Shown one piece after another: positions 4,741-40,200 of a stretch of DNA of 64,000 bases. The stretch is from Candidatus Nomurabacteria bacterium RIFCSPHIGHO2_02_40_30 (GTDB lineage Bacteria; Patescibacteriota; Minisyncoccia; Phycocordibacterales; UBA9973). The stretch's first letter is position 1. Each line of letters opens with the position of its first letter. Below the pieces are notes generated by a model that was not told the DNA's origin, searched no databases, and worked only from the letters and a program-made list of their open reading frames with translations. The stretch spans positions 159,859-223,858 of the forward strand of contig MFTV01000016.1 of the NCBI GenBank assembly GCA_001785445.1. The letters run 5' to 3'. The position numbers were made by a program, and so were the translations under genes.

Positions 4741-4748
4741 GAAAATTT

Positions 4749-9504: not shown

Positions 9505-12354
9505 ATGAAAAAATTTTTACCCTTCATTTTAATACTATTTATACTGGTAGGACTATTTAGCCCGATAGGGCAAGTCTATGCATCTCAGGCAAACCCGAAG
9601 GAAATCTGTAATGCTGACCTTAGTAATACTCCCTGTACTCCTGAATTTTGTTTCACCTCTGAGGGCGCAATTTATCGTAGCGGAATATCAAAAGCAAATT
9701 GCCCTACCACAGGAGGATATAATTGGGGAACTAGGGAGCAATATGGAAGAGGAACTGAAGCTCGCACTGCGGCAACTGATATAGTGCCAGGAGATACACC
9801 TGCATCCGGGGAGTCAGAATTTGAAAAAAATAGTGGAAGCTGTACAACCCTGGTGGCAGGGAACGTTGAAGATTGCATAGTTAAATTAATTTATTATATT
9901 TTTTATGTTATTCCGGCTTTCTTGCTAAGCCTAGCCGGAAAATTTTTTAATGTAATTATATCTCTTACACTAAGCAGTCTTTTATACACTTCGTCCCCTT
10001 TCATATCGGAAGCATGGGGAATTGTGCGCGACCTCTCAAATCTTTTCTTTATACTTATTCTGCTTTACATAGCTATAAGAACCATCCTAGGCATAGGGGG
10101 TTCAGATGTGAAAAAAATGATAGTGCAGGTAATAATTATGGCTTTGCTTATAAACTTTTCCATGTTCTTTTCTAAAATAATTATTGATTCTGCCAATATC
10201 TTGGCTTTGGTTTTTTATAATAAAATTAATGTGGAGACCACAGTAAATGGACAACGAAGAGATAATTTACCAACAATCAATCAATCCAAAACCGGAATAG
10301 AAGAAAAAGATGTTGCAGGAGGAATACTGTCTGCTTTCGACCCTACTAAATTATTATCCGCAGAGTTTTTTAAAAAAGCTAAGGAAAAAACCCAAGCAGT
10401 GGGTATGGGTGTTATAGGTACCGCTGCCTATGTGGCGGGCGGAGCGTATCTCGGAACATTTATTCCAGTACCAATATTGGGAACAGTAATAGGAGCTGCT
10501 GGAGGGTATGTAACGTCACAAGTAGTGGGCTTGTTTATAAGTACAGATAAAGTACCCCCGGGGCTGATGATTGGGATTATTCTTACTGCTGGCATGATGA
10601 TGCTTTTTGCAGCGTACGCATTTTTTATAGCCGGATTAGCTTTTATATCAAGACTAATTGAGCTTTGGGTTTTGATCATCTTCTCTCCTTTTGCTTTTAT
10701 GTCTTCAACGATACCGTTGTTTCAAAAGATTGAAGGCATAGGGTGGGATGAATGGATAAAACGCATCCTAAAATTATCGTTTATGGCGCCGATTTTTATG
10801 TTCTTTCTTTACTTAATATTCAAACTAGTATCGTTAGACATATTCAAAAGTCTTGCGGATAGAAGTTTCCCAGACCAAGGCACGCTTGAAGCTTTAGTGC
10901 TTATGATTATACCAGCAATGGTAATTTTAATTCTTCTCCATAAATCTACAGAGTACGCTAAAAAGGTATCGGGTGAGTTAGGGGGGATGGTTATAAAGGG
11001 CGCAAGCGTGGCGCTAGGAATTGCAGGTGGGTTAGCAATAGGTGGAATAGCTCAAGGTCTCCAAGCAACTGCTGGCAGGGCTGGCAATCTTCTTGCTAGT
11101 TCTGCAAGATTAAAGGAAATGGAAGGAAGAGAAGGTCCTGGTGTGCGTAATGCTTTTGCCAGGTTTGCTGGTGGAAGGTTGAGAACTATTGGCAATGTGG
11201 CTGCTGATAGTAACTTTGATGCAAGGAAGGGAGCAGTGGGCGCTGTCTTGGGTGCGGCAGAAGGAGTAACCGGACTACAATTTGGGAAAGCGTCTAAACT
11301 ATTAACAGGAAAAGACAGCTATAGACAAGATAGGAAAAAGAGAGACGAACAAAGAAGAAAGAGGGCTGAAGAACTAAAAGTAGGACCGGATGAAGCATTG
11401 ACGCAAAACTTGCGAAAAGTAGAAGGTGCTCATCAAGATCTTCTAGTAGACCAGATTACAGATGAAGATGGGCATAAACATGGAAACGCAGAGTACATTG
11501 AATTATTAGATACTAGAATTACAGCGCAAAGAGCAAGAGCAAATAATTATTCAGCAAGGTCAAGAGAAAATCCTACTGGAATTAACTCAGCTACTGGAAA
11601 TACTTACAAGAAAGATGCCCAAATCGCTCAAGATATTGCAGCAGATTCTGAAGGAGAAAGAAAAGCAATTAAGGATGCAGGAGTATTTATTTCATCAACA
11701 GGAAAGATACTTGATTACAGTCAAAATACAACAACCAAGCAAGTAACAGAAGAGACACGAAATAATGTAACTAGTCTTGCAGCCAATACAAAATCACAAG
11801 TAGATACAGCACTAAAGAATATCGAAAAAGAAGAAGCAGAAAACGCAGAGGCCATAAAGGGGGCCACAGAAGTCTTGTCAGAGGCAGAAAAAGCTAGAAA
11901 TACAGCAACACAAAAGGGTGATACTGAGGCTATAGCTAGAACAACGAAAGCATTAAGAGATGCTACTGCTAACTTAGAAAAAATTAAGACTGATGGAACT
12001 GAATCTATAGCTACGGCTAAGTCTGCTCATGAAAAAGCAATAGAAAGAGCCGCCAAAGCTACGGAAGCCCTAAAGAAGGTTGAGGACAATGTAGCTAAAA
12101 ATGGAGTTGGAGGTAGGTCAATAAATGACTTAGAAGATAAAGATATTCCACATGCTCACCATGCAGTAGAACGTTCAACTAAGAAGAGACAAAGAGGTTA
12201 TGCCGAAGGGCTTGAAAGCTCAAATCGTTTCTGGAGTGGAGGACAATATAATCCGACAAATATTGGCAGGGCGGAAGTTAATGAAACGGTTCATAATATA
12301 AGAATGAATGCAAAATTAGATAGTGGACATGGAGGAAAAGGAGGAGGACACTAA
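9505..12354 (+). CDS. Polytopic membrane protein with a long C-terminal coiled-coil domain; VirB6/TrbL-like candidate
   Basis: Signal peptide, then ~6-8 hydrophobic helices between aa ~120-480, followed by a ~450-aa charged coiled-coil tail; position 5' of the VirB3/VirB4-like genes. Confidence 0.45.
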   Translation: MKKFLPFILILFILVGLFSPIGQVYASQANPKEICNADLSNTPCTPEFCFTSEGAIYRSGISKANCPTTGGYNWGTREQYGRGTEARTAATDIVPGDTPASGESEFEKNSGSCTTLVAGNVEDCIVKLIYYIFYVIPAFLLSLAGKFFNVIISLTLSSLLYTSSPFISEAWGIVRDLSNLFFILILLYIAIRTILGIGGSDVKKMIVQVIIMALLINFSMFFSKIIIDSANILALVFYNKINVETTVNGQRRDNLPTINQSKTGIEEKDVAGGILSAFDPTKLLSAEFFKKAKEKTQAVGMGVIGTAAYVAGGAYLGTFIPVPILGTVIGAAGGYVTSQVVGLFISTDKVPPGLMIGIILTAGMMMLFAAYAFFIAGLAFISRLIELWVLIIFSPFAFMSSTIPLFQKIEGIGWDEWIKRILKLSFMAPIFMFFLYLIFKLVSLDIFKSLADRSFPDQGTLEALVLMIIPAMVILILLHKSTEYAKKVSGELGGMVIKGASVALGIAGGLAIGGIAQGLQATAGRAGNLLASSARLKEMEGREGPGVRNAFARFAGGRLRTIGNVAADSNFDARKGAVGAVLGAAEGVTGLQFGKASKLLTGKDSYRQDRKKRDEQRRKRAEELKVGPDEALTQNLRKVEGAHQDLLVDQITDEDGHKHGNAEYIELLDTRITAQRARANNYSARSRENPTGINSATGNTYKKDAQIAQDIAADSEGERKAIKDAGVFISSTGKILDYSQNTTTKQVTEETRNNVTSLAANTKSQVDTALKNIEKEEAENAEAIKGATEVLSEAEKARNTATQKGDTEAIARTTKALRDATANLEKIKTDGTESIATAKSAHEKAIERAAKATEALKKVEDNVAKNGVGGRSINDLEDKDIPHAHHAVERSTKKRQRGYAEGLESSNRFWSGGQYNPTNIGRAEVNETVHNIRMNAKLDSGHGGKGGGH

Positions 12355-14686: not shown

Positions 14687-14802
14687 CCGTTAGAAGCCGC
14701 GGTCGCAGTTTAATATATAATATGTTAATAGAAAATATAAAATTTAATAACTTAATCAAGCATAGTCTCGGTCTGATGACCGCGACCTGCTTCTAACGGG
14801 AT
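14687..14802. repeat. 116-bp element with GC-rich terminal inverted repeats and an AT-rich core, separating the two VirB4 ORFs
   Basis: tcccgttagaagc (left end) and gcttctaacggga (right end) are a perfect 13-bp inverted repeat, extended by imperfect GC-rich subterminal repeats (cgcggtcgcag / gaccgcgacc); the core contains a TATAAT-like box. Confidence 0.5.
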
Positions 14803-16687
14803 GGGAATCTTACAAAAGTGGTTTGGAAAAAAAAATAATGACGTAAACAGTAGTTCCGCGGGAAGGGGTGGGATGCAAGCGTCTACTCTCCCAGTGGTGC
14901 CGGAAGAGATTTACAAAAAAGCCAGTCTGGAATTCCAAGACATCATTGCGCCGTCGGCGCTTAAAATTGACTCGAAGTCTATAAGTTTGGGAGATAAAAT
15001 CGCCCGTACTTTCTTCATCATATCTTATCCTAGATTTTTGACCGATAATTGGTTTTCTCCGATAATTAATTTGGATAAAGTTTTCGATATTTCACTTTTT
15101 ATTCACCCGATAGATACTTCTCTGATGCTGCGGCAGTTCCAGAAAAAAGTAGCTGAAGTGCAAAGCCAAATAAATGTACGTGAAAGCAAGGGCATGGTTC
15201 GCGACCCCATGCTCGACACCGCCTACCAAGACTTGGAAGGCCTGCGAGATAACCTGATTCAAGCCCAACAGAAAATGTTCGATGTCGGCATTTACATTAC
15301 CATTTATGCCGACAATGAAATGGACCTATTCAAGCTAGAAAATGAAATCAAGTCAATGCTGGAGTCAAAGCTAATATACATCAAGCCAGCTCTGTTCCAA
15401 CAAGAAGATGGTTTTAAGAGCGTCATACCGATAGAAAATGACCTGTTAGGCATTAATCAAAAATTAAATTCGGAGCCGCTTTCAAGCGTGTTTCCATTTA
15501 TTTCTTTCGACCTAACCTCTGACAGAGGAATACTCTATGGCATCAACAGGCATAACTCCAGCCTGGTTATTTTCGACCGGTTTTCTCTGGAAAACTACAA
15601 CTCGGTAACCTTCGCCAAAGCAGGGTCCGGCAAATCATATGCGACCAAACTCGAAATTCTAAGGTCCCTAATGTTTGACATCGATGTTATCGTTATTGAT
15701 CCGGAAAGGGAATATGAATTTCTTTCCGAGGCTGTCGGGGGGAGGTATTTTAATATATCTCTTTCTTCCGACCACCACATCAATCCATTTGACTTGCCAA
15801 TACCGCGCGAAGACGAAACCGCCGAGGATGTTTTGCGATCAAATATTATAAACTTAGTCGGGCTTTTCCGGCTTATGCTCGGCGGGTTGACTCCGGAAGA
15901 AGACTCAATCGTAGATAAGGCTATTTCAGAAACTTATGCCATCAAAGATATCACTCCGGAGTCGGATTTTTCGAATATTGAACCGCCGCTCCTTTCGGAC
16001 TTTGAAATGGTGCTCTCTGGCATGGAAGGCAGCGATTCGATCGTGGTGCGTTTGGCAAAATATACCAAAGGCTCTTGGGCGACATTTCTAAACAGACCGT
16101 CAAATGTGGATATAAATAAAAAATTCGTTGTTTTTTCCGTTCGAGACATGGAAGACGAATTAAAACCGGTGGCCATGTATATAATCATGCATTATATATG
16201 GAATGCCATACGCAAAAATTTGAAGAAACGTTTACTGGTGGTGGATGAAGCATGGTGGATGATGAAGTCTGAAGATACCGCTTCATTCTTGTATTCCTTG
16301 GCTAAAAGAGGAAGAAAATACTACCTTGGGCTTGCTACTATCACTCAAGATGCGGCGGACTTTATGAATTCTCCGTATGGGGTGCCGATAATCACTAACT
16401 CCTCTATTCAACTTCTCCTGAAACAGTCTCCGACCACTATTGATATTTTACAAAAAACTTTCAACCTGACCGATGAAGAAAAGTACCTGCTTTTGGAGTC
16501 GGGCGTGGGCGAAGGGATATTCTTTGCGGGGCTGAAACATGTGGCCATTAAAATAATCGCTTCTTATACCGAAGACCAAATCATTACCTCTGACCCATCG
16601 CAAATATTATCAAACAGAAAAGCTAAAGAAGATTTTGAAAAAGGAGAAATGGCGCCTGCCAACCCTCCGGAAAAAGTGTTACAATAA
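14801..16687 (+). CDS. virB4: Type IV secretion ATPase, VirB4/TraC/TrbE family (C-terminal ATPase portion)
   Basis: Walker A FAKAGSGKSYAT; Walker B LLVVDEAWWMM; conserved LGDKIARTFFIISYPRFL region; ITQDAADF motif. Confidence 0.8.
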   Translation: MGILQKWFGKKNNDVNSSSAGRGGMQASTLPVVPEEIYKKASLEFQDIIAPSALKIDSKSISLGDKIARTFFIISYPRFLTDNWFSPIINLDKVFDISLFIHPIDTSLMLRQFQKKVAEVQSQINVRESKGMVRDPMLDTAYQDLEGLRDNLIQAQQKMFDVGIYITIYADNEMDLFKLENEIKSMLESKLIYIKPALFQQEDGFKSVIPIENDLLGINQKLNSEPLSSVFPFISFDLTSDRGILYGINRHNSSLVIFDRFSLENYNSVTFAKAGSGKSYATKLEILRSLMFDIDVIVIDPEREYEFLSEAVGGRYFNISLSSDHHINPFDLPIPREDETAEDVLRSNIINLVGLFRLMLGGLTPEEDSIVDKAISETYAIKDITPESDFSNIEPPLLSDFEMVLSGMEGSDSIVVRLAKYTKGSWATFLNRPSNVDINKKFVVFSVRDMEDELKPVAMYIIMHYIWNAIRKNLKKRLLVVDEAWWMMKSEDTASFLYSLAKRGRKYYLGLATITQDAADFMNSPYGVPIITNSSIQLLLKQSPTTIDILQKTFNLTDEEKYLLLESGVGEGIFFAGLKHVAIKIIASYTEDQIITSDPSQILSNRKAKEDFEKGEMAPANPPEKVLQ

Positions 16688-27286: not shown

Positions 27287-28153
27287 TTATAATGTGGTTT
27301 CCACTTTCATTTTTAATGCATCCCTCAACGACTTGATTGCGTCGTTCAAAGACTGATGCGCATTCTTTAATAATGTTTGTGTATCTTGCGCCAATGTTCG
27401 CAATGTTGTCCTGTTTTCAGTTGAAAGTTCGTCAATCGAAAGAGATAGTAAGGCATTTGCTTCTGCAATTTTTGTTTTTGCCTCATTTAATTTAGCTTCT
27501 GCCGTAGCTACAAAACTTAGGGCTGTCGTCACATCTACTCCTTTAGCTTCCAGCTTGGTTACTTGGGTATTAACCTTATCTTTGAGTTTACTGATTCTTT
27601 CAACAGCTGTGTCGAATCTTTCAAGAGCTTTTTCTCGTCCCAGCACCCTAGTTTCTTTTATTTTTGCCTTGACTGCATCTTTCTCGTCTTTGATTTTAGC
27701 TCGGAGGTCTTCCATTTTTTGCTTGGCCTCCTCTCTTTTTACTTCTATTACTTTTTTTACTTCTTCCCTTTTAGTCTTCATTTCAGTGCGTATTGCTTCA
27801 CGCTTCTCTTTCATCTCTGTGTTGAAAGCCTCTCTCTTTGTTTGCATTTCTTTTCTCACTTCCTCTCTTCCATCTTTCACTTTGTCTTTAGCTGCTTCTC
27901 TAACTGTTTTTATTTCAGCTTGGTTCGCTTCACGTCTGGCTTTTAAGTCAGCCTGAACTTGCATTTGGGCTTTTAGGCGCGCATCTGCATCTGCTCTTCT
28001 TTTTTGCGCCGGAGTCGTAACAGCTCCTATATTTGTTTCCGCAGTTACATTGGTGGTAGCAGAAACTTCCGCGTTTTCTTCGGCATATATAGTGTGTGCG
28101 TTCAAAACAAGTATTATTGCTAAAGGAATAAACAAAGTTAAATATTTTTTCAT
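27287..28153 (-). CDS. Secreted coiled-coil protein (K/E/R/A-rich repeats)
   Basis: Signal peptide MKKYLTLFIPLAIILVLNAHTIYA; repetitive KREE/EVKK heptad-like sequence. Confidence 0.5.
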   Translation of the reverse strand: MKKYLTLFIPLAIILVLNAHTIYAEENAEVSATTNVTAETNIGAVTTPAQKRRADADARLKAQMQVQADLKARREANQAEIKTVREAAKDKVKDGREEVRKEMQTKREAFNTEMKEKREAIRTEMKTKREEVKKVIEVKREEAKQKMEDLRAKIKDEKDAVKAKIKETRVLGREKALERFDTAVERISKLKDKVNTQVTKLEAKGVDVTTALSFVATAEAKLNEAKTKIAEANALLSLSIDELSTENRTTLRTLAQDTQTLLKNAHQSLNDAIKSLRDALKMKVETTL

Positions 28154-28194
28154 AAGTATTTTAGTATTAAACTATTAATAATAGACCTAGCCTA

Positions 28195-30210
28195 TTATAT
28201 CAAAAACGCCACCAAAAGTAACGCAACTATGTTTAGTATTTTGATCATAGGATTGATAGCAGGACCAGCTGTGTCTTTATATGGGTCTCCTACAGTGTCT
28301 CCGGTAACTGCAGCCTTATGGGCCTCACTACCTTTTCCGCCATGGTTTCCTTGTTCAATGTGTTTCTTGGCATTGTCCCATGCACCCCCTCCAGAAGTCA
28401 TTGAAATCGCCACGAAAAGTCCGGTAATAATAGAGCCTACCAGTAACCCTCCCAGAACCACAAAACCTTTCTCTTGACCAAAAAGCAAAATGACTAATAT
28501 CGGCGCGAATACAGGGATAAGAGCCGGCAGTATCATTTGTTTGATAGCTGCACCGGTAATAATTGATACGGCCTTGGCATAGTCCGGCAACGCTCTCCCT
28601 TCCATGATTCCTTTTATTTCTCTAAATTGTCTCCTGATTTCTTCCACGACTTTGCCGGCAGTTTTACCCACAGCTTCCATGCATAATGCTCCGAAATAGT
28701 ACGGCAAGAGTCCTCCGATAAAAAGCCCGACAATCACATATGGATTACTCAAATCAAAAGTTATGGCCTTGCCAGCTTTTGCAATCTCTTCTGTGTAGGA
28801 GGCAAAAAGAACAAGCGCGGCGAGTCCGGCCGAGCCTATAGCGTAGCCTTTAGTGACTGCTTTAGTAGTGTTGCCTACGGCATCTAGTGGATCAGTAACA
28901 TCGCGAACTTCTTTCGGAAGCTCGGCCATCTCGGCAATGCCTCCGGCATTATCGGTGATAGGGCCATAGGCGTCTATGGCCACAATAATTCCTGTCATGG
29001 AAAGCATAGACATTGCGGCCACAGCTATTCCGTACAGGCCAGCGTAGTTGTAGCTTACTAATATCCCAAGAACGATTGTAAATAAAGGCCAAGCAGTGGA
29101 CTTCATTGATATGGCTAAACCTTGAATCACATTTGTGCCGTGACCGGATACCGATGCTTCCGCAATTGATTTCACGGGAGCATATTTTGTCGAGGTAAAA
29201 TATTCTGTAATTATGACCAGAGCTCCAGTAACAAAAAGACCCACCACTGAACAAATAAATAAGTCCATTACCTCGTATTTGCCATTACCTGCCATCAATA
29301 ATTTAGTAACAGGGTAGAAAGAAATTAAAGCAAGAATTCCGGAAGCTACTAGACCTTTGTATAAAGCTCCCATTATATTACTCGATTGATTACCCAAACG
29401 CACAAACCAAGTGCCGACAATTGACGCAAAAATTGCTACTCCGCCAATTACTAACGGGTAAAGAATTGCATTTTCAAAACCGACAAAAAGTAGGGAACCG
29501 AGTAGCATTGTAGCCACTGAAGTAACAGCGTAAGTTTCAAATAAGTCCGCAGCCATACCGGCGCAGTCGCCAACATTGTCGCCAACATTGTCTGCGATAA
29601 CTCCAGGGTTTCTTGGGTCGTCTTCTGGTATGCCTGCCTCAAGCTTACCGACAAGGTCTGCGCCCACATCCGCTGCTTTGGTAAAAATTCCTCCTCCTAA
29701 TCTTGCGAAAATAGAAATTAGCGAAGCCCCGAAGCCAAGGCCGACAAGCGCGGTAATATCTTTGGTAATTGCATAAAATAAAGTGACTCCAAGTAAGGCA
29801 AGGCCCACTACCAGAAGCCCGGTAACTGTGCCGCCTTTAAATGCTAGAGAGAGAGCACTTTCTATACCTTGTCTGGCAGCTTCTGTTGTGCGGACATTTG
29901 CTCGCACAGAAACATTCATACCTATGTATCCAGCGAGAGCAGAGAAGACAGCTCCGATCAAAAATCCGAGAGCCATAGTCCAGCCGAGCTTGGGTACAAA
30001 ACCAATAATAAAGAAAAGTATTAATGCTATAACTGCAATAGTTTTGTATTGTTTATTTAAATAAGCACTAGCACCGTCTTGTATTGCTTTGGCAATTTCC
30101 TGCATGCGCGCATTTCCGGCGCTCTTTTTTAAAATTGACTTAGCTAAAAATAAACCGTAAACAATAGCCACAACGGAACTGATAATTGCAAACCATAAAA
30201 AGTTACTCAT
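28195..30210 (-). CDS. hppA: Membrane-bound H+/Na+-translocating pyrophosphatase
   Basis: [18 protein letters not shown] and [19 protein letters not shown] signature motifs; ~15 TM helices; 671 aa. Confidence 0.9.
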
Positions 30211-30214
30211 TTTT

Positions 30215-31372
30215 TTATTCGTTTATTTTATCACTAATAATTTCTTTGTCCGGAACTACTGTGCCATCGCCCTTGATATCTATTCTCCAACCAGTGAGTT
30301 TGGCGGCTAGGCGCACGTTTTGTCCGCCCTTGCCGATAGCCAGAGACAATTGGTCATCAGCCACTTCTACCACAGCTTTATGTTCTTTTTCGTCTACTTC
30401 GATAGAGATAACTTTGGCTGGGGACAGAGAATTAGAAACAAAAATTTTAGGGTCAGAAGACCAAGGAATAATATCAATTTTTTCTCCAGAGAGCTCGCTG
30501 GTAATAGTGTTTACTCGCGTGCCTTTCTGTCCGACGCAAGAACCGACAGCATCAATGTGTTCGTCATTAGAAAATACCGCTATCTTAGAACGCGCTCCCG
30601 GCTCTCTAGCTATAGACTTCAACTCTACAATTCCATTCTGGATTTCTGGCGCTTCAATGGCAAAAAGTTTCTCTATAAATTTAGGGTGCGTACGGGAAAG
30701 GCGCAAATTGATGCCCCTAGGGCTGTCTTCCACCGAGTATAGGTAGGCGCGGACTCGTTGTCCTCGCTCCCAAAATTCCCCTGGGATTTGTTCTTCCGCC
30801 GGCAAGATACCGGTCGCACGGTTAAAGTCTATATATATATTTCCTCTCTCAACTTTCTGCACCACTCCGCCAACTATTTCTCCCTCTTTGGTGCCATATT
30901 CGTCTATTATAGAAGTGCGTTCTGCCTCGCGGATTTTCTGGATGATGACTTGCTTGGCCGTCTGGGCGGCTATGCGTCCGTAGTCTTCTTTGGCCTCCAG
31001 TGGAAAAATAATTTCATCATTTAATTCTACCCCTTTTTTTATTTTCTTGGCGTCTTCGAGCATGATGTGATGCTCGGCGTTGAAGTGCACGCGTTCATCC
31101 TCGGTATCTTTTACCGAATACTCTTTCTCTTTTTTATTTTCTTCACCCACGATTGCGATACTTTCATCCACCACGATTTTCACTTGGAAGAATTCTGTCT
31201 TGCCGGTGTCTAAGTTAAATTTTGCGCGAATTATTTGTCCTTTTTTGCCGTAATCTTTTTTGTAAGCGGCAGCCATGGCTTGCTCTATGGCGTCTAGGAT
31301 TTTTTCTTTTGGAATTTTTCTCTCTTCTTCTAATTGCTCCAAAGCTGACTTGAATGTTTTGATGTCTAACAT
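30215..31372 (-). CDS. nusA: Transcription termination/antitermination factor NusA
   Basis: NusA N-terminal domain, S1 domain ([20 protein letters not shown]) and two KH domains ([12 protein letters not shown]; [21 protein letters not shown]). Confidence 0.9.
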
Positions 31373-31389
31373 ATATTTTTGTACCAGAT

Positions 31390-31418
31390 AGAGGCTAAAC
31401 CTCTATCTGGTGGTTATT
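31390..31418 (-). promoter_or_regulatory. Perfect 11-bp-stem hairpin in the nusA 5' leader
   Basis: ccagatagagg-ctaaa-cctctatctgg, immediately upstream of the nusA start. Confidence 0.3.
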
Positions 31419-31535
31419 AAATTTTTCTAATAAAAAAGCCCCGTTGTTACAGGACTTACCAATTGGGAGCATACCACACCCCTTTTTTTGATGCAAGCAC
31501 TTGACTTATATATATAACAAGTATATGGTGTATAT

Positions 31536-31808
31536 ATGAATAATGCAGTTATAAATTTTAATACAGATGCTAAACTTAAAAGCGAGGCGAAACAAGTCCT
31601 AGACGAGATGGGACTAAATTTCTCTATTGCCTTAAATGCTTATTTAAGGAAACTAGTTGTAGAAAAAAGGATAGAGTTTACTACACCAGAGATACCCAAT
31701 GCTCGTTTAAGAAAAGCGATAAGAGAAGGGCGCAAAGAGTATGCCACTGGAAAGATGAAAGTCTATAAAACTCACGAAGAATTGGAGAAGCATCTCCTGT
31801 CTTTATGA
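31536..31808 (+). CDS. dinJ: Type II antitoxin, DinJ/RelB family
   Basis: INFNTDAKLKSEAKQVLDEMGLNFSIALNAYLRKLV matches the DinJ N-terminus; overlaps the downstream toxin by 4 nt. Confidence 0.7.
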   Translation: MNNAVINFNTDAKLKSEAKQVLDEMGLNFSIALNAYLRKLVVEKRIEFTTPEIPNARLRKAIREGRKEYATGKMKVYKTHEELEKHLLSL

Positions 31809-32068
31809 TTGATATATTAACTAGTAAAAAATACGATAAATCTTTCAAAAAGAAAGATAAATTTGTGCAACAGAAAGCTCTTGAGCGAATAAGACTTTTT
31901 AGAGAAGACCCCTTTAATGCCTTATTAGATAATCACAAGTTACATGGAGAATATGAAGGGTGCAACAGCATAAATATTACTGGGGATTTTCGGGCAATTT
32001 TTGAATATATTACTAAAAATAAAGTAGTCTTTTACGACATAGGCACCCATCCGGAATTATATCGATAA
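31805..32068 (+). CDS. yafQ: Type II toxin, RelE/YafQ family mRNA interferase
   Basis: 87 aa; HKLHGEYEGCNSINITGDFRAIFEY...VFYDIGTHPELY matches the YafQ/RelE C-terminal pattern. Confidence 0.7.
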   Translation: MIDILTSKKYDKSFKKKDKFVQQKALERIRLFREDPFNALLDNHKLHGEYEGCNSINITGDFRAIFEYITKNKVVFYDIGTHPELYR

Positions 32069-32077
32069 ATGTGAAAG

Positions 32078-32112
32078 AAGACAAAAACGGTCTAAAAGCC
32101 GTTTTTGTCTTC
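32078..32112. terminator. Bidirectional intrinsic terminator between yafQ (+) and the GIY-YIG gene (-)
   Basis: gaagacaaaaacgg-tctaaaa-gccgtttttgtcttc, perfect 14-bp stem, T-rich run downstream. Confidence 0.7.
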
Positions 32113-32186
32113 TTAGTCTTTCTTTTTTTATTTCGTCCTTATAAATAAAGGTTTTTTATACACTATTTACCCCCACACCTTTTGTT

Positions 32187-32495
32187 TTATTGAAGACTTT
32201 CGGAGATTCTTTTTTTCAATTGCCCAAGTGCCTTACCATCTTTCTTTAACATATATTCTCTTGTCCTAGCGTCATCCTCACTCTTACAAGCTTCATAATA
32301 TCGAATTTCAAATGGTCTTCTAGCTTTAGTTGAACGATTAAGTCCCTTGTTATGTTCCGAAAGTCTTCGCTTCAGGTCATTGGTTGAGCCTATATATAGT
32401 TTGTCATCTTTTAAGCTTTTTAGAATATATACATAAAACATAATCATATTATAGGACCTGAAGCTATAAAACGAAAGGTGTGGGGGGTTATCCAC
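32187..32495 (-). CDS. Small GIY-YIG nuclease-domain protein (start probably at the internal MFYVYIL)
   Basis: FYVYILKSLKDDKLYIGSTNDLKRRLSEHN is the GIY-YIG signature; ~85-100 aa. Confidence 0.75.
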   Translation of the reverse strand: MDNPPHLSFYSFRSYNMIMFYVYILKSLKDDKLYIGSTNDLKRRLSEHNKGLNRSTKARRPFEIRYYEACKSEDDARTREYMLKKDGKALGQLKKRISESLQ

Positions 32496-32514
32496 CTTTT
32501 ATGCACAATATGTA

Positions 32515-32542
32515 TTGACAAACAGGGGAAGGGTGGTATAAT
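32515..32542 (+). promoter_or_regulatory. Near-consensus sigma70 promoter (TTGACA-N16-TATAAT), followed by a two-hairpin 5' leader
   Basis: ttgaca (~32515-32520) and tataat (~32537-32542); leader hairpins gcgtaaaca-gga-tgtttacgc (~32563-32585) and ccgtca-gaagat-tgacgg (~32600-32617). Confidence 0.45.
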
Positions 32543-32622
32543 TGACAGTAGGAATAATTCGTTGCGTAAACAGGATGTTTACGCTTTGACAATTTCGTTT
32601 TTTTTGGGTTTCCGTCAGAAGA

Positions 32623-33393
32623 TTGACGGAGCCCATGAAAGGGTTTTTTATGAAGAAGTTTTTGATGGCCGTAGCCATCATCGTTGTGATGACGACGATG
32701 GCTCATGGCCAGCAGGTAGTCTTGGCTCCCGGAAGAGTTCCGGGGGTCGAGGGCTACCTTCCTGTGGTCGTGGCTGGTGACGGAAACCAGACCACACTAC
32801 TAGTGCGGGGGCCAGCAGGCACAGCGAAAAAAGTTGGTTTCGACTTGTTCGACCAGGATGGTCAAGCGAGTCAGCTCCTCGTAAATGGGGAGCCAGCAGT
32901 TTTATTCGTGGCGGTTACTAATCCCATGACGGGAAAGGTTGTCACCGAACTGACATGGAGTGGTCAGTTCAAGGTGGTTTGGGTGAAAGTTACCCAGCCA
33001 CTGAACATAAACGGAGTGCCAGAGACCTCGGTCTCCATGGCGCTCCAAAAGGTTATCGGCGCAGGTGTCGTTCCCTTCGCCGCTGACCTTGCTCCCGTGG
33101 AAGCGACGAAAGTCGCCACCTTCTACGGCGGGAAAAGAACTGGGTTGGCTTTTTGCAACCCGAACGACACAACCGTAACGATTTCGATCACCAGAGAGGG
33201 GGCGGAGGTCGTTACAAAAAATCTTGCGCCAAAAGCGCAAGTCTCCCTTTTCCTGGGGGAGTTGTTCTCAAAGTTTTCTTCAGGAGTCGAGTTCATCCGA
33301 ATCGACTCCAGTCTGCCGGTGGCCGTCATGCCACTCGTCACAGACGGAGAAAATTTCTTCACCCTGTCGGTGGACAGAGTGAGGGGGAATTAG
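32623..33393 (+). CDS. Secreted hypothetical protein with atypically high GC (probable start at the ATG of MKKFLMAVAIIVV, ~32650; the ORF-track start is TTG)
   Basis: Signal peptide; gene body ~55% GC versus ~38% in surrounding genes; flanked by a local AT-rich promoter and a GC-rich terminator. Confidence 0.55.
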   Translation: MTEPMKGFFMKKFLMAVAIIVVMTTMAHGQQVVLAPGRVPGVEGYLPVVVAGDGNQTTLLVRGPAGTAKKVGFDLFDQDGQASQLLVNGEPAVLFVAVTNPMTGKVVTELTWSGQFKVVWVKVTQPLNINGVPETSVSMALQKVIGAGVVPFAADLAPVEATKVATFYGGKRTGLAFCNPNDTTVTISITREGAEVVTKNLAPKAQVSLFLGELFSKFSSGVEFIRIDSSLPVAVMPLVTDGENFFTLSVDRVRGN

Positions 33394-33415
33394 GGCGGTG
33401 CGAGGAGCACCGCCC
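33393..33415 (+). terminator. GC-rich hairpin terminator, followed by two further hairpins (~33416-33436, ~33459-33482)
   Basis: gggcggtgc-gagga-gcaccgccc; then ccagaagc-cttttg-gcttctgg; then gccggaagcaaaatgtcttctggc followed by attttttatt. Confidence 0.55.
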
Positions 33416-33526
33416 CCAGAAGCCTTTTGCTTCTGGTTCATATCGTTTTTATATGTGCCGGAAGCAAAATGTCTTCTGGCATTTTTTATTGCCCAAAATT
33501 GATTTGGTGTATAACTTTTTATTGCA

Positions 33527-34282
33527 TTGCAGTATAGCAGGGTATATAATTGTTCTATATATATGATGACCCAGAATTCTAAAATAGGCCTAGGACTAGT
33601 TGCTGTTATTATTTTGGTCTTGATAGTTTTCTGGTACCCGAGTTATAAAGTTCAAAATATTCAAAATGAACAAAAAGATAAGTTAATTTTGGACGATAAA
33701 GTTTACAAGCTCAACAAGCTAGTGCTAGCTCACGAATGCTCTCAAGTTTTAGAAGAAGCTGAAGCGTATCTCTCAACAAATGCCGACGCCGAGCAAATTT
33801 GGAGCGCATTAGGAGCTTGCCAGTTTGACCTCGGAAAATTTAAAGATGCAAAAGATAGTTTTCAAAAAGTTCTTGCATTAGAACCCGAAAATGTTGCCGC
33901 CAAGAACTATTTAAAACAAATGGAATTTAAAACAGGTGAAATTGTGGTTACCGGCACGGAAACTCCTTTTGATAAGATAGAGTTCGAGTCGAGGATGGGA
34001 CTCAACTTTGATGAGATTTTGACTTTTGTAAAGGCCACCGAGAAACCTTCCAATATATTGGAGTATTTATTAGCAAGCTATACCACTACCAACAGCTTGG
34101 ACAACACAATTTTATTTTTGAAAGATGCTTTGAAAAAAGCCGGCATGAATTTTACTTTTTCTGGAGCCAAAACAGGCACCATTATTTCTTATGGGAATGA
34201 AAAAGAAAGAAAAATAATCATGCTTGAGAAGAAGAATTCTTTAGTAAAAGTGGAAATGAATTATCAAAAATTAACAAATTAA
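33527..34282 (+). CDS. Membrane-anchored TPR-repeat protein
   Basis: N-terminal TM ([17 protein letters not shown]); TPR-like helices ([36 protein letters not shown]). Confidence 0.5.
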
Positions 34283-37200
34283 TGAAAAACAAACATTACA
34301 CATTATTATTCGCAAGCATAATTATCTCTATTTTTTTTGGGGTAAACCTTGCCAATGCTTCCACTCTCAATGTCTCCGGCTGGGCAAACTCTGCTTGTAA
34401 TGCAAGCAACGGTACTTCTTTTTCCATTACCGAAGACAGGTCTTTTTATATTACTAATGCTTGGATCGGAGGCAATGGAGTATGGGATGATCAGATAGGA
34501 TTTTCCGGCACATTTAACGGAAATGTTGTCGTAAATACCAGCGCTGGTTGGTCAGGTGGATGTAGTGGTGATGCTCAAGCTGGAAGTGGCTACACTGATT
34601 TTTATCCTCTCTCTATGACTGGCTCAACGGACAACGATACTTTTACTTTTTCTCTTCTGGCTCTGCAAAAAAGAGATGAGATATCATCAAGTAATACCTT
34701 TCATGGAAGCATTGAATATAGCTACACAAAAAATCTCTGTAGTCCCGGGCAATATACTTTAAACAATGGATGTGTATGGGACACCGGAACGATTTCCGTT
34801 AGCGCAGGTGGTACCACTGTCACCAGTAGCAACGCTAGTCCCGGAGGGTCTGTATCATGCACCGCTCCTTGTAGCCCAGTAATTAGTTGGAATGTAACCA
34901 GTGGTTTGCCTAGTTCTGGTCAAGTTAGAAAAAATAATGCGGTTTGGAACAGCGGGAACAATTCTGGCAATGTGACAGACTCTGGGCTTGGCGTCGGAAC
35001 TTACTCATATGATTTATATATTCAAGATGGCCACGGAGATTATCAAGGAATTCAAGGTCCGACTGTAACAGTTGCCGATGTTCCTATTGTCCCTACCCCC
35101 ACAGCCACTATGTCTGTTTTAGTAACTAAATTTGACCTTACTCCGACTAAAAAAAGTGACACGGCTACTGTAAAAAATGAAAGTGCGACAAGTGGTGGAA
35201 GTTTTGGTGTTATATGTACTGTTCCAACAGCTTTTCCTGGTCTTACATCAAGTTCAATAGATTGTCCTGACTCAGAATCATTTACTGCCAACTCCAGCAA
35301 ATCTTTTTCTGTAACACTTGACTCTAATACTCCAACTACTCCTGGAACTTACACAGGAGTTATGAGGATAAAAGCTACTGGAGAAAATGGAACAATTGTT
35401 TCAGGTGATTCAAAGGATATTGCCATTAGTTACGTTGTGCCTACAGTCGTAACTCCTGTTCCCACTTGTAGCGCTGACCCCACGACTGTTTTGGTTGGAC
35501 AAAATACCACTTTGACTGGGAGAAGCGGTGACGGTAGCAATTATTCTTGGTCAGCTTCAGGTGGCAATTTCAGCTCCACTAGCGGCAAGACGGTTACCGT
35601 AAACTTTGGTTCCACAGGGCAGAAAAATATATCCGTGACCAGTGGAGGCTCCACGGGTGCTTGCGCAGTTACTGTCAGCGCTACACCTGTTATGTCGGGC
35701 ACCCTTACTCCGTCGTCAACCTCTTGCGAAATTTATTCTGGTGCTTCTACTTGTAACGTAACCTTAACTTGGAGCACAACTAATCCAGAAGCTACATCTG
35801 CTGTGACAGCTGCTGCTTCACCATATGCGCCTGCTGTTAATGTAAGTGGAAATTCCGGCTCCCAATCTTTTGCTGTTCCGTATAGTAGTCGAACTTTTTA
35901 TCTTTATAACAACGCTAAATCTCTCGTTCCCACTTCTCCAAATGGCACTGGGGTAACTGTTACTTCAAGCTGTGTGGCAGGAACCACTTGGACTAGTGGT
36001 GCTTGTATTACAACTACAGCGCCACCGTCGCCTACGTGTCCTTCTGGCCAAACAGGAACACCTCCAAATTGTACAACACCTCCAACTTCAGGTAGTGTAA
36101 CTCTTACGGCTAATCCTAACTCAGGACCTGCGCCATTAAACGGAGTATCTCTCCGCGCAGCCGTTGGCGACTCTGCAGGATGGAAATATTATTATTATTT
36201 CTTCTGTAATGCCCCAAATCCAGTAGCCGTTCCTCCGGGTGGTTCTAATCCTCCATTTAATAACGATGGTGGGTCTGTGACGTATACTTCAAGTACAACT
36301 GCCAACTCAAGCAATAACTGCAATTATTCTTCTGCTGGTACTTACACCGGCAGAGTAGCTGTTTTGAAATATCAAGGTTCAGACCCGTTTACGACCAACT
36401 ACTGGCAGAATTCTTCAAACTGGAGACAGGCAACTGCTGCAGTGACAGCTACCACTCCTGTTTCTCCTATCACCGTCTCTCTCACTGCCAATCCACCTTC
36501 TATGACTCTACCTACCAACTCTACTATTCTGACTTGGACAACCACCGGTAATCCGACAAGTTGTATAGCATCCAACGGTTGGAGTGGAGCCAAAACAGCT
36601 AGTGGTGGAACTGAAAACAGAACAGGTCTGACTGCTCAAACCTATACCTACAATATTACCTGTTCAAAGTCAGGAGTGCCTGATGTTATAGACACAGCGA
36701 CGGTGGTGGTTACTGCCCCTGTTATGTCCGGCACTCTTGCTCCCACTAATCCTCCCGGACTTTCTTCTTGTATTATCGCATCTGGAGCTTCCGCCTGTAA
36801 CATAAATTTTTCTTGGACTACCACTAACCCTGTGAGCACTTCTTCTGTTACTAGAAATCCATCTTCCGGTTTTAATCCACCTCTTCAAAATTCTGGCACT
36901 AATGTTCCTTTTCCTGTGCCATACAACACCGCCACTTTCTTTCTTTATAATAATAATACCGAACTTGCTCAAAGCGCTGTCACTGCCAGTTGCGTGTCCG
37001 GCACTACTTGGGATGGGAGTAAGTGTGCTGTACCGTTGCCAGCGGCTCCGTCTAACCTGCAAGCGAGCAACGCTATCTGTGGAGCTATCCGCCTGACTTG
37101 GCAGGATAATTCCAACAACGAAACTGGGTTTAGAATTTACCGTAGTCGAAGCCAAAGCTTCAGCATTGGTGGATACTATGCTACCGTTGGAGCCAATGTT

Positions 37201-40200
37201 ACGAGCTATACTGACCCAACCCCAATGCAATTTTCCAGCAACTATTACATGATTGCATCTTACAACGGGGTTGGGGAGAATTACAGCAATGCCGTTTCCA
37301 TAACTCCTACCGGCTGTATGTCCGGCTGGTTAGATCCATCTGTTAGTTGCACTATTTCGGCAGGACAAAATAGTTGTAACGCAAACCTGTCTTGGAACAT
37401 AAATAATCCGGAAAGCACCCCAACAGCTATTACAGCCAGCGGTATGACCAATATAAATGTTTCCAATTCTTTGTCCACTCCCCAGTCAGGTACTCAAGCC
37501 GTATCTGTGCCATACAACAGCAGAACATTCTATCTTTACAACAATTCTAAACCTCTTGCTACCAGTGCTGCCACTGCTGATTGTGCCAATAATACCACCT
37601 GGACTGACGGTAAATGTTTGCTTAATTCATACACCGTCACTGCCACTGCCGGTCCTGGGGGCTCTATTTCTCTTGCGCCAAGTTCATTAAACACAAACAC
37701 GATTTCTTCGTGTGGCGAGATTAAAACCCCGGGGAATTATACTTTAGACAGAAACATATCTTCTTCGGGTACCATGTGTCTGAATGTGCATGATGTTTCA
37801 AATGTGCATCTTAACTGCAACAACTATTCAATTACCGGATCAAATGTTTACAGTGGCATGGCGACAGTTTATTTCAAAAATGTAAATAATTTTTCTCTCG
37901 AATCATGTACAATCGTTGCTGGTGGGGGTAGTCCAGTATATATTGGAAACAGTACACAAGGCACCATCAGAAAAAATACAGTTGGGAAATATGCTATGCA
38001 GGTTTTTAATAGCTCCGACCTCACGATCAAAAATAATACTTTCGATGCATCTTATTCGCAATACTATACCAACGGAAGTATCATAGAAAATAACTCATTT
38101 AGTGTGGTCATAGGTCCATCAAGTTTGGGACGTTCTTCTTATCCGGGAGTTGTTGTTTCAGCCGGAGGCTTTAATAATCGAATTGTGAACAATAATATTG
38201 ATGGAAAAGCTAGGGGTGTACTCAGTGAAGAAATAGGAGCAGATGACGGCATTGTTCTTGACGATGAAAGAGATGATTTTGTTCAAAACAATATCATCAA
38301 AAACAATTGGGATTGCGGGATAGAAACTGTCGGATTTATCAGAAATACCATTATGAGTGGCAATACAATTTCCAATTCTGGTCTGTGCGGAATAGGCGCT
38401 TGGTACCGCAATAGTTGGAAGGGAAATATAATTTCCGACAATATAATCAGTGATGCTCCTAACATGTTTTACTTTTTTCGGGTTTTTGGATTACAACCCA
38501 ACGAAACTTACGTTTATTTTGTTGATAACGCATTTAGTGGAAATAAATTTTTAAATCCACGAATCTCAAGCTCTGCACTTTTTAATTTTAGTTTCTTTGA
38601 TTACCGTAATAGTGGAAAAACAATCAATCCGGAAAATCTAGTCCTTGGGAACAATCGGTTTAGTAACAATGACTTTGGTGTTACAAACATGAATCCACCA
38701 CAATTTTATCCTGCCTCCATGATCGTTGATGGAGGCGGTAATAGATGCAGTAGTATAAACAGTTTCGGTAACCCTCTAGCTTGTTCGGGATCCGTGGCAT
38801 TTTCTCCTACTCCTACTTCTATTTCAGCGCTTGCTATTTCTTCCATTTTTTCTCCCACTCCAGCCCTCGCCGCTTCCGTTTCTTCCAGTACTTCTCAAAA
38901 AGTAAACTACGGTGATAAAGCCACTTTTACTGTTACCCCAGACACGGGCTATTCCACATATTCTATTACTGGTTGTAATGGTTTATTATTTGGCGCCACT
39001 TACACTACTGAACCTATTACTGGCGATTGCGCTGTCTCAGCTACGTTCAACATTAATAAATACACCGTTACTACATCTGCAGGTCCCGGCGGTTCAATAT
39101 CTCCAGCTTCCAGATCAGTGGACCATGGTTTAACTACAACCTTTACTGTTACCCCTGACTCCGGTTATTCCATAGGTTCCGTCACCGGTTGCGACGGCTC
39201 AGGTACTGCTAATTATACAACCGGCCCTATTGTCAGTAACTGTATTGTTTCTGCAACCTTTTCATTTATTCCAGTTATGTCCGGCACTCTTGTTCCCACT
39301 GACCCTCCCGGACTTTCTTCTTGTGTAATTTCCGCGGGACAAAATAGTTGTAATATAAATCTGTCTTGGAGTGTAACAAACCATGAAGGAGCTGTGACAG
39401 CTATAACTGCCAACGGAATGGCCAATAGAAATTACTTCAATATATATTCAGGCACTGATTCTTTTACTGTTCCATACAATGATTTGGGTGTATACTTTTT
39501 CCTTTACAACAGCGGCAACAAACTTGCGGAAACAAAAGTTTCCACTGTCTGCGACACTGGCACTAACTGGGATGTCAATGTTAGTAAATGTGTTTCTCTG
39601 GCTGCTGATTTGACAGCTGGCGCTGTTACGCCAACAACTGCCACGGTTAATATATCGACTACATTCTCATCTCCTGTTTCCAATATTGGCAGTGTTTCTA
39701 CCGGAAACTCTTTCTTCAACTTCTTTCAAGTTGCTACTGCTATCAACGGAGGTGGTACTATCACTGACCTAGGAGCAACCAACATGGGAACTCTTAATGC
39801 CGGTTCACAGAGTACGAGTACGAAATCACACATTTTTTCTTCCACAGGGAACTATTCTATTCGTGTTTGCGCGGACAAGAGTTCGTCCGGAAATTCGGGG
39901 ACTATCACTGAATCAGACGAGAACAATAACTGCGGGATCTGGACAAATATCACGGTTACTAGCACCGCAGTGCCTGCGGGGGACATCTCCGCCACTTCTT
40001 GCGTTATCGCAAGTGGTGCGTCTACCTGTAATTCGTCAGTGACTTGGAGCACTCAAAATCTTACTGCTGGGGCTACGGAAGTTACCAGAAACAATCCAAA
40101 TGGCACTCATGTTTCTTTCAATACTTCTGGGACTAATGTAAATAATGCAGTCAACAATGGAGAAAGTATTTTCTACCTATATCATAATATTAGCGGGACT

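Follow-up and report, generated by a model that had tools for sequence, protein, structure and literature searches.

A hypervariable GC-rich secreted-protein gene and a GIY-YIG mini-element between nusA and a type IV pilus locus of Candidatus Nomurabacteria

Introduction

Must a gene that departs sharply in base composition from its neighbours be a recent arrival? This question is raised by a short interval, positions 31536-33482, in a 64-kb stretch of a contig from Candidatus Nomurabacteria, a lineage of the candidate phyla radiation (CPR); the whole 64-kb stretch is called the window here, and coordinates refer to it unless a contig label precedes them. The interval lies between nusA and a locus for type IV pili and a large adhesin, and it holds a type II toxin-antitoxin (TA) pair, a GIY-YIG nuclease gene and a GC-rich gene for a secreted protein. 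An earlier, sequence-only reading had treated these genes as one accessory islet and had singled out the GC-rich gene as the clearest candidate for horizontal transfer in the window. The genes that it described, the promoter and the hairpins were all found where it had placed them.

Comparison with retrieved public contigs (labelled L005, L007, L011, L012, L014, L015, L016, L017, L018, L020 and so on) points to a mosaic of three independent units between nusA and the pilus/adhesin locus, a reading to which we give, as a whole, a probability of roughly 0.7. According to it, the GC-rich gene behaves as a resident, hypervariable first gene of the type IV pilus/adhesin locus that is exchanged by recombination; the GIY-YIG gene belongs to a self-contained mobile element of 317 bp, one of a family found across the CPR; and the TA pair is a dispensable accessory addiction module that wanders within the locus.

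Relatives of the GC-rich gene at the same locus

The GC-rich gene (32650-33393, plus strand) encodes a protein predicted to carry a signal peptide, ending AHG-QQ, and two beta-sandwich domains. Gene callers start it at the ATG at 32650, giving 247 aa, and the earlier reading had started it at the TTG at 32623, giving 256 aa. A hypothetical protein of Candidatus Nomurabacteria bacterium RIFCSPHIGHO2_12_FULL_40_7 has the same sequence as the 247-aa product, which places the window in a CPR genome from the Rifle aquifer. A word-indexed homology search with this protein returned no match but itself, and a profile of the family added none; an exhaustive HMMER pass over 1.84 billion representative proteins returned about nine close relatives (E < 1e-10). 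The full-length ones among them, of 245-290 aa, are secreted proteins that stand alone and have 31-43% identity with the window protein. All close relatives with readable contigs lie in low-GC contigs of CPR type and no high-GC donor was seen among them. Weak domain-level matches occur in giant extracellular proteins, of which the sole member with a source name comes from an Acidobacteria bacterium.

Homologues occupy corresponding positions in related loci. In L015 the homologue lies directly downstream of nusA, and the genes upstream are exactly those of the window. In L011 it stands between nusA and a T2SSE gene, adjoining another RelB/YafQ pair, and the order in L014 is nusA, a Y1-transposase-like gene, the homologue and large proteins. 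The homologue precedes large surface-protein genes in both L011 and L014, and a TPR gene in L018. All five homologous genes are GC-richer than their own loci (0.52-0.62 against 0.37-0.45), with z-scores for GC content at third codon positions (GC3) of 5.3 in L014, 4.0 in L012 and 2.8 in L015. The sequence-only reading had itself named related genomes with the same gene at similar GC at this locus as evidence against transfer; such genomes were looked for and are there, with homologues downstream of nusA in three contigs, and its choice of this gene as the clearest transfer candidate is not supported. GC-richness appears to be an old trait of the family, and recent transfer from a high-GC donor does not seem to be its source. 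At the protein identities given above, synonymous sites must be saturated, and the high GC3 would then be an equilibrium property.

Apparent replacement of alleles and of the whole locus

The contig L015 is 99.82% identical to the window over 9.7 kb (21707-31378), a match that ends at the start of nusA. Further on, its promoter region is 89% identical and the start of its TPR gene 97% identical to those of the window. Between these two points, with allele boundaries at 32552 and 33564, lies a different allele, which encodes 290 aa with 34% protein identity to the window product and has a leader and a terminator of its own. Alleles of the window type and of the L015 type both occur in one sample, ERZ4903137 (L003 and L016).

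The converse arrangement was found as well. The nusA gene of L005 is only 74.9% identical to that of the window (L005:5664-6857 against 30215-31372) and its H+-pyrophosphatase gene 64% identical; the breakpoint falls exactly at the nusA start, and from 31373 to at least 42977 the identity is 100.00%. L007 is 100% identical from within nusA (30275) to 42977. BLAST puts the beginning of its 99.9%-identical block within the H+-pyrophosphatase gene, at 29531; upstream of that point the identity is about 74%. The block that is 100.00% identical in L005, L007 and the window spans at least 12 kb, from the TA pair to the pilus ATPase. The same backbone with different surface alleles, and different backbones with the same block, make up a pattern of recombinational switching that needs confirmation from reads, and horizontal exchange at this locus would appear to be the replacement of alleles, or of the whole locus, between related Nomurabacteria.

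Three non-coding flanks are conserved between the window and homologous loci, namely a pair of DnaA-box-like 9-mers, the -10 hexamer plus TGAC, and the 3' arm of the terminator. The last of these is AATGTCTTCTGGCATTTTT in the window, in L011 and in L014. All three are kept at a protein identity of only 31-36%. Better conservation of the flanks than of the protein points to diversifying evolution of the latter. We propose that the sequence of the surface gene diversifies very fast and that its alleles may be swapped by homologous recombination within the conserved flanks.

The terminator arm takes the form AATG(T)CTTCTGG(G)CATTTT at window 33425-33482, in L011 and in L014, and L015 and L012 have in common a second type of terminator (AAGCCTCGG...CGAGGCTTTTCTTAT). 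A diversity-generating retroelement was considered as the source of the hypervariability and dropped: a repeat search of 31300-33700 revealed no template-like copy, and there is no reverse transcriptase among the called neighbours.

Composition, expression signals and predicted structure

The sequence-only reading had put the gene at about 55% GC in a background of about 38%. The first figure is borne out (0.54), and the background is rather about 40% (window mean 0.40). GC3 of the gene is 0.62-0.63, compared with a mean of 0.36 and a maximum of 0.48 for the other genes of the window. Its amino-acid composition, taken with window codon usage, predicts a GC content of 0.46 and a GC3 of 0.38, and the GC3 excess that is due to codon choice reaches z = 4.2 against 54 other window genes. 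Amino-acid composition alone, which had been named earlier as a possible explanation of the shift, does not account for it. The shift is real: about half of it comes from a composition rich in Gly, Ala, Val, Pro and Thr, and about half from codons ending in G or C. TTC, for example, stands at 79% in this gene and 28% in the others, and ATC at 75% and 17%; G-ending codons (GAG, CAG, GCG, ACG) are raised as much as C-ending ones.

The gene has its own sigma-70 promoter (TTGACA-16-TG-TATAAT, 32515-32542, plus strand), with an extended -10; the earlier description of it as near-consensus was, if anything, cautious, 12 of 12 consensus positions being matched in addition to the TG. A 5' leader of about 100 nt follows (32543-32649, plus strand), with hairpins at about 32564-32584 and 32605-32635. 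It folds better than shuffles (z = -3.8), and to this extent the two-hairpin leader described before stands; the hairpins are not conserved among homologous loci. RNAalifold applied to six homologous leaders found no common structure, and a conserved riboswitch-like leader is therefore unsupported. At the other end (33394-33482, plus strand), a GC-rich hairpin is followed by a long compound hairpin and a T-run, which we read as a terminator. The GC-rich hairpins noted there before are confirmed by the folding of the region 33385-33500, which is much better than that of shuffles (z = -7.5). Rfam at gathering thresholds and ARAGORN gave no match anywhere in the window, so the GC-rich stretch is not a known structured RNA. 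A reading of the 3' hairpins as an integron cassette with attC was dropped, as no GTTRRRY core sites were seen by eye.

The AlphaFold model of the 247-aa protein consists of a signal helix and two beta-sandwich domains (pLDDT 73, pTM 0.73). Fold searches against PDB and BFVD returned generic beta-sandwich matches of Ig/FN3-like type and one domain-level match to TM1070, and neither Pfam, NCBIfam nor PADLOC has a family for the protein. The product would be a strongly transcribed, Sec-exported protein of two beta-sandwiches, probably acting at the cell surface or in interaction with a host.

What might keep such a gene GC-rich? One explanation, which in our judgement falls just short of an even chance, is that the family entered an ancestor of these Nomurabacteria long ago from a GC-rich lineage and has since been kept GC-rich by a force specific to the gene, with codon selection for very high expression, GC-biased gene conversion at a recombination hotspot and selection on mRNA structure as candidates. 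Distant homologous modules in large extracellular proteins outside the CPR are consistent with this origin, as is the location of the gene exactly between recombination breakpoints. The perfect consensus promoter fits expression-linked codon bias, and so does the fact that ClpP (0.48), SOD (0.455) and NusA (0.435), whose genes are probably well expressed, have the next-highest GC3 in the window. However, an increase in G-ending codons as large as that in C-ending ones is unusual for translational selection, and the neighbours in the same exchanged block, the genes for the TPR and giant proteins, have an ordinary GC3 of 0.34-0.36.

The GIY-YIG mini-element in the window

The GIY-YIG gene lies on the minus strand, and PF01541 (68.9 bits) is the only domain of its protein. 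The open reading frame (ORF) is more likely that of 86 aa (32187-32447), as in public assemblies, than one of 102 aa with a GTG start. It is enclosed by inverted repeats of 21 nt (32170-32190 and 32466-32486; CCCCCACACCTTTTGTTTTAT and ATAAAACGAAAGGTGTGGGGG) that are 95% complementary, and the unit so delimited measures 317 bp (32170-32486). A TATAAT box at 32448-32453 stands directly upstream of the first ATG and six bases before the second. PADLOC gave only a weak generic match to the nuclease, and a tblastn search with it against plasmids returned two UPF0213-like matches only.

The whole unit is not in L015 (window 32170-32487). The gene is thus accessory, as had been suggested from the sequence; it is not, however, of the homing type then assumed, being part of a mini-element bounded by terminal inverted repeats.

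On its right the element meets two DnaA-box-like 9-mers, TTATCCACC at 32488-32496 and TTATGCACA at 32499-32507 (plus strand), which lie shortly before the -35 hexamer. A single G separates the first from the element, and the 64 kb contain no other TTATNCACA than that at 32499-32507, which immediately precedes the surface-gene promoter. The pair (TTATNCAC[A/C]) is conserved at window 32488-32507, L015:9844-9863 and L011 about 9832-9851, and DnaA or another regulator may use it as an operator. In L015 the near-empty site (9826-9850) already contains TTATGCACC; the motif was therefore there as the target and did not come with the element. The window element would have inserted beside this DnaA-box-like TTATCCAC motif, upstream of the promoter of the surface gene.

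A member of a different miniature element family is seen in L015 at ~11013-11121 (window ~33565). The insertion measures ~110 bp, has 13-nt inverted repeats (TCCCGTTAGAGAT ... ATCTCTAACGGGA) and seems to have duplicated TGAG; it lies at the TPR start codon and has no counterpart in the window.

A family of elements across the CPR

We scanned metagenomes and species-representative genomes for CCCCCACACCTTT followed by 275-305 nt and then AAAGGTGTGGGGG, with exact 13-nt ends required. The scan yielded 43 metagenome stretches (Rifle, Hainich groundwater and other sites) and 22 genome stretches. The latter are labelled Nomurabacteria, Paceibacterota, Uhrbacteria, Parcubacteria and 'Saccharibacteria', together with one archaeon and one Methylobacter, whose copies, we would guess, may come from mis-binned contigs. 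Nearly all of the stretches enclose a conserved ORF of ~84 aa.

Removal of duplicate loci left 53 distinct insertion sites. An exact direct duplication of 4-5 bp abuts the ends at 38 of them (TTAT/ATAA at 21, TATGA at 8, and others). As a control, duplications of at least 4 bp were counted for the first 39 sites and were present in 69%, compared with 12% when flanks were paired at random. Copies that lack the ORF but have the same ends range from 32 to 137 nt, in size classes of 32-40, about 70 and about 130-137 nt, and 14 of 18 of these are likewise flanked by a duplication of at least 4 bp. Short hairpin and miniature copies occur in other CPR contigs, and none was found elsewhere in the window. 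Some copies are recent: L020 has two that are 97.8% identical with unrelated flanks, and L033 has an identical tandem pair.

With terminal inverted repeats, target duplications, 53 distinct flanks, presence/absence polymorphism and recent copies, the element shows, as far as sequence can tell, all the structural features expected of a family of transposons in which some members are autonomous and others are not. Its only ORF is the GIY-YIG nuclease. Because it encodes no known type of transposase, whether DDE, HUH (His-hydrophobic-His), serine or tyrosine recombinase, the element fits no established insertion sequence family.

The ORFs are under strong purifying selection (dN/dS about 0.08). 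In all copies retrieved, the scan requiring exact ends, the outer 13 nt are invariant, and compensatory changes are found at inner stem positions 15, 17 and 19 (AU/GC 24/17, UA/CG 28/12 and UA/CG 28/15, respectively); amid synonymous sites that are saturated, these features argue for selection on the ends. Most copies have a TATAAT box 6-8 nt before the ATG, which suggests a leaderless transcript.

Target sites and insertions in RNase P RNA

The exact motif TTATCCACA is abutted by 16 of the 53 sites, or by 22 when one mismatch is allowed. Those 16 are among only 42 occurrences of the motif in ~485 kb of retrieved loci, where its background is 4e-5 per position, and the element is found in either orientation relative to it. 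Targets and element ends have a CCACA core in common, suggesting a single recognition specificity. Targets in the family include GTTATCCACA and TATGA. A second subfamily, with the inner stem CATCTCAT and no TATAAT box, is always flanked by TATGA (L020:75-391 and 1032-1348; L027, L042, L061, L065, L081 and L083). It sits exactly at the ATGA stop/start overlaps of two co-oriented genes, where, through the duplication, the first gene regains its stop codon and the second its start codon.

A link between the DnaA-box-like targets and oriC was considered and dropped: the flanking genes, as judged by eye, are LexA-like, for surface proteins, or others, and none is dnaA-like. In L026:3520-4702 and L049:1867-3037, elements at the site GTTAT·CCACAG lie ~290 bp upstream of a LexA-like gene, an assignment made by eye from the translation.

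One RNase P RNA gene (L021:3912-4905; Rfam match and raw sequence) contains three members of the family, as does its counterpart in the 7446-8310 region of the related L029. The first copy in L021 is full-length with a decayed GIY-YIG ORF and occupies the P3 position (3935-4244). The second, of 133 nt and ORF-less, forms an extended P12 (4415-4547), and the third, of 137 nt and also ORF-less, lies just before the 3' ACAAAAUUCGGCUUA element (4739-4875). Evidently the terminal stem can let the element sit in an essential structured RNA.

Taken together, these features suggest how the element might work. The nuclease most likely recognises the CCACA-containing ends and targets and makes staggered cuts, probably on single-stranded or hairpin DNA as Ssn nucleases do, and the paired ends would form a stem that renders insertions harmless in transcripts. 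We further suggest, tentatively and with the odds somewhat against it, that mobility is brought about by the 84-aa GIY-YIG protein itself, and that the family represents a class of bacterial DNA transposon not recognised before. Such a class would combine CCCCCACACCTTT ends, duplications of 4-5 bp, miniatures of its own, DnaA-box-like TTATCCACA and ATGA targets, and tolerance within RNase P RNA by means of the end helix.

The gene and its repeats could also be a domesticated, Ssn-like module, that is, a single-stranded DNA (ssDNA) nuclease which regulates transformation or recombination near surface genes. The strong purifying selection and the age of the copies would agree with such a role, as would the single copy per 64 kb here, its position directly upstream of a hypervariable surface gene and beside pilus genes, and a Competence/ComEC-like gene 18 kb away; there is also the precedent of Ssn repeats, which lie near host-interaction genes and modulate transformation (PMC11893778). 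We consider this explanation rather unlikely. Target duplications flank most sites, those of ORF-less copies included, the element is present or absent between near-identical strains, recent duplicates occur within a genome, and copies have inserted within RNase P RNA and at operon gene junctions. The L015 allele, moreover, is equally variable without the element.

The TA pair and the surrounding genes

The third unit begins with a RelB/DinJ-family antitoxin gene (31536-31808, plus strand, 90 aa), whose product scores 36.8 bits with the Pfam model RelB PF04221 (cut-off 22.4) and 46.1 with TIGR02384 (cut-off 45.65). The YafQ/RelE-family toxin (31805-32068, plus strand, 87 aa) scores 33.9 bits with PF15738 (cut-off 30) and 30.1 with TIGR02385 (cut-off 27.9). 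With the stricter YafQ model TIGR00053 it reaches 30.6, below the cut-off of 87.25, and it is therefore called a RelE-superfamily, YafQ-like toxin. The two genes are bicistronic with the antitoxin first, and the toxin ORF overlaps that of the antitoxin by 4 nt (ATGA). Both this arrangement and the scores of the hidden Markov models (HMMs) above curated cut-offs support the type II DinJ/YafQ-like pair that had been recognised from the sequence.

A palindrome at 31499-31522 overlaps a promoter-like site of the pair (TTGACT-17-TATGGT, 31499-31529, plus strand) and is likely an autoregulatory operator, to go by what is known of type II TA systems. The antitoxin would neutralise an mRNA-cleaving toxin of the RelE superfamily and probably repress its own palindromic promoter. 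A perfect hairpin of 16-17 bp with T-runs on both sides (32075-32114) probably terminates transcription in both directions between the pair and the GIY-YIG gene. PADLOC found no defence-system match for the pair.

The TA region (31463-32136) is not in L015, which is nearly identical to the window up to nusA, and L011 has a 68%-identical TA copy at another position in the same locus, downstream of its GC-rich homologue. Accessory DNA is what the pair had been taken for, and these two contigs agree with that; the pair appears to be a dispensable, wandering addiction module.

To the left of the interval, nusA (30215-31372, minus strand; Pfam NusA_N, KH_5 and S1) is the anchor of the locus and coincides with a recombination breakpoint. 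Just upstream of its start, ~31 nt with a perfect 12-bp hairpin (ACCAGATAGAGG ... CCTCTATCTGGT; 31374-31404) are present in the window and L005 and not in L015. To the right, the next gene of the locus encodes a TPR protein (33527-34282, plus strand). Its 3' neighbour encodes an adhesin-like protein of 2296 aa, which is followed by type IV pilus genes for a PilB-like ATPase, a PilC-like platform protein and an N-methyl pilin. BLAST cross-matches reveal internal DNA repeats in the adhesin-like gene (36718-36771 with 39271-39324, and 37354-37458 with 39328-39432) that probably reflect repeated domain modules. Elsewhere in the window, the product of a gene at 14801-16687 with a relatively high GC3 of 0.47 has 628 aa and contains a TraG-type P-loop / AAA_10 domain, as proteins of conjugation or type IV secretion typically do.

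Discussion

Several points weigh against the account given here. For the surface gene, the L015 locus is an imperfect empty site, its intergenic DNA being only 84-91% identical to that of the window, and the mosaic contigs L005 and L007 are metagenome assemblies known from contigs, not from reads. The homologues are weak GC3 outliers in L011 (z = 1.4) and L018 (z = 0.7). The high GC3 may have any of several causes. The structural model is of only moderate confidence, with fold searches that give no functional clue. For the element, the requirement for exact 13-nt ends biases the family sample. Synonymous sites are saturated between most copies (median pS 0.76); most insertions must therefore be old, and domestication of the element could be far advanced. 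At the window copy the duplication is imperfect (TTTA on the left, GTTAT on the right), and the 64 kb hold no second copy. A hydrolytic GIY-YIG nuclease, moreover, is not known to perform strand transfer, which leaves the mechanism of mobility conjectural.

The reading from which this study started, that the whole interval is a horizontally acquired islet with a GC-rich gene recently imported from a distant, GC-richer donor, now seems very improbable. It can appeal to a GC3 of 0.62 against an average of 0.36 (z about 4), to the atypical use of TTC and ATC, to a secreted protein that belongs to no Pfam or NCBIfam family, and to weak domain matches in giant proteins, one of them named as from an Acidobacteria bacterium. 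But the homologues at the same locus in related CPR genomes are all GC-rich, the closest relatives among the 1.84 billion representatives lie only in low-GC contigs of CPR type, and alleles 34% identical stand behind one promoter in backbones 99.8% identical; with alleles so far apart, a foreign GC3 should by now have moved towards that of the host. Least probable of all is that the allele swap and the mosaic backbones are chimeric metagenome contigs: L005, L007 and L015 are indeed MEGAHIT contigs from complex samples, and 100.00% identity over 12 kb beside 75% identity is unusual, but the L015-type allele recurs on 11 independently assembled contigs from several samples, L016 and L017 share its junctions, the window type occurs on 22 contigs from JGI, NCBI and ENA assemblies, and a de Bruijn assembler should need the junction k-mers in the reads.

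We therefore return to the mosaic of three units. Since a strong compositional outlier is here not a recent import, deviation in GC or codon usage alone is a poor ground for calling horizontal transfer in CPR genomes. We rank the GIY-YIG mini-element family as the main interest for follow-up and the hypervariable GC-rich surface gene as the second. A hypervariable, recombining gene for a secreted protein heads the type IV pilus/adhesin locus in a lineage of episymbiotic type, and a variable surface locus of this kind would be expected to mediate interaction with a host or with phage. The element family offers a testable model of a mobile element to which both the 2025 discovery of Ssn nucleases and the GIY-YIG insertions of CPR rRNA genes, hitherto unexplained, can be linked. 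If the nuclease does drive mobility, it would be a new class of enzyme for bacterial transposition, and the family would also be a source of small, sequence-specific nucleases whose cognate sites are known.

Comparison with known systems

The TA pair shares with RelBE and DinJ-YafQ type II systems its HMM matches above cut-offs, the antitoxin-first order, the 4-nt overlap and the promoter palindrome; no unusual feature was seen, and its activity is a prediction. The surface gene resembles variable surface loci such as those for capsule, O-antigen and pilin in having divergent alleles between conserved flanks, with the same backbone carrying different alleles and the converse. It differs from them in that the variable unit is one small beta-sandwich gene, of a CPR-restricted family with a persistent GC excess.

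For the GIY-YIG gene, homing endonucleases of the I-TevI type offer a GIY-YIG domain and a weak HMM similarity to group I intron endonucleases. The window protein, however, has 86 aa with no second, DNA-binding domain; its gene belongs neither to an intron nor to a phage, and searches of the window returned no intron or other RNA family. The family, furthermore, ends in inverted repeats and has target duplications, features that do not arise by homing. A classical GIY-YIG homing endonuclease was ruled out on these grounds. The Correia (nemis) elements of Neisseria have short inverted repeats and small target duplications and form hairpins when co-transcribed, and they encode no protein. REP/RAYT systems, as discussed in PMC11893778, have a small nuclease gene flanked by its own palindromic repeats. 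RAYT proteins are relatives of HUH tyrosine transposases and not of GIY-YIG type.

GIY-YIG ORFs have also been reported in CPR rRNA genes, in insertions that are neither group I nor group II introns and are not homing-like (Tsurumaki et al. 2024, PMC11270868). Those genes resemble the present ones as GIY-YIG genes of the CPR within insertions in structured RNA genes; in the description available to us, by which alone the two were compared, they differ in that no inverted repeats, duplications or protein-gene contexts are reported. In the searchable literature we found no prior description of GIY-YIG elements bounded by inverted repeats, or of the repeat sequence.

The closest described system is that of the Ssn nucleases (family cd10448) with their hairpin repeats. 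Ssn nucleases are single-domain GIY-YIG proteins of 94 aa that cut ssDNA next to a cognate hairpin repeat (PMC11893778). Their genes are flanked by the cognate NTS/SRM repeat, an architecture that the authors liken to an insertion sequence (Chenal et al. 2025, Nat Commun, PMC11893778), and the repeats cluster near host-interaction genes. By sequence, the nearest relatives of the window nuclease are the UPF0213 proteins 1ZG2 and 1YWL (BH0048, EF2693) and B. subtilis YazA, not known Ssn members. The CCCCCACACCTTT repeat is unlike the SRM consensus, and here the repeats on either side of the gene are arms of a single long-range inverted repeat around it; CPR hosts, target duplications, ORF-less miniatures and a site preference are not described in PMC11893778. 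The additional repeat copies scattered near surface or host-interaction genes in the Ssn case may have a counterpart in the short hairpin and miniature copies of other CPR contigs; what the two systems share is a single-domain GIY-YIG protein of ~90 aa and a gene flanked by repeats on both sides.

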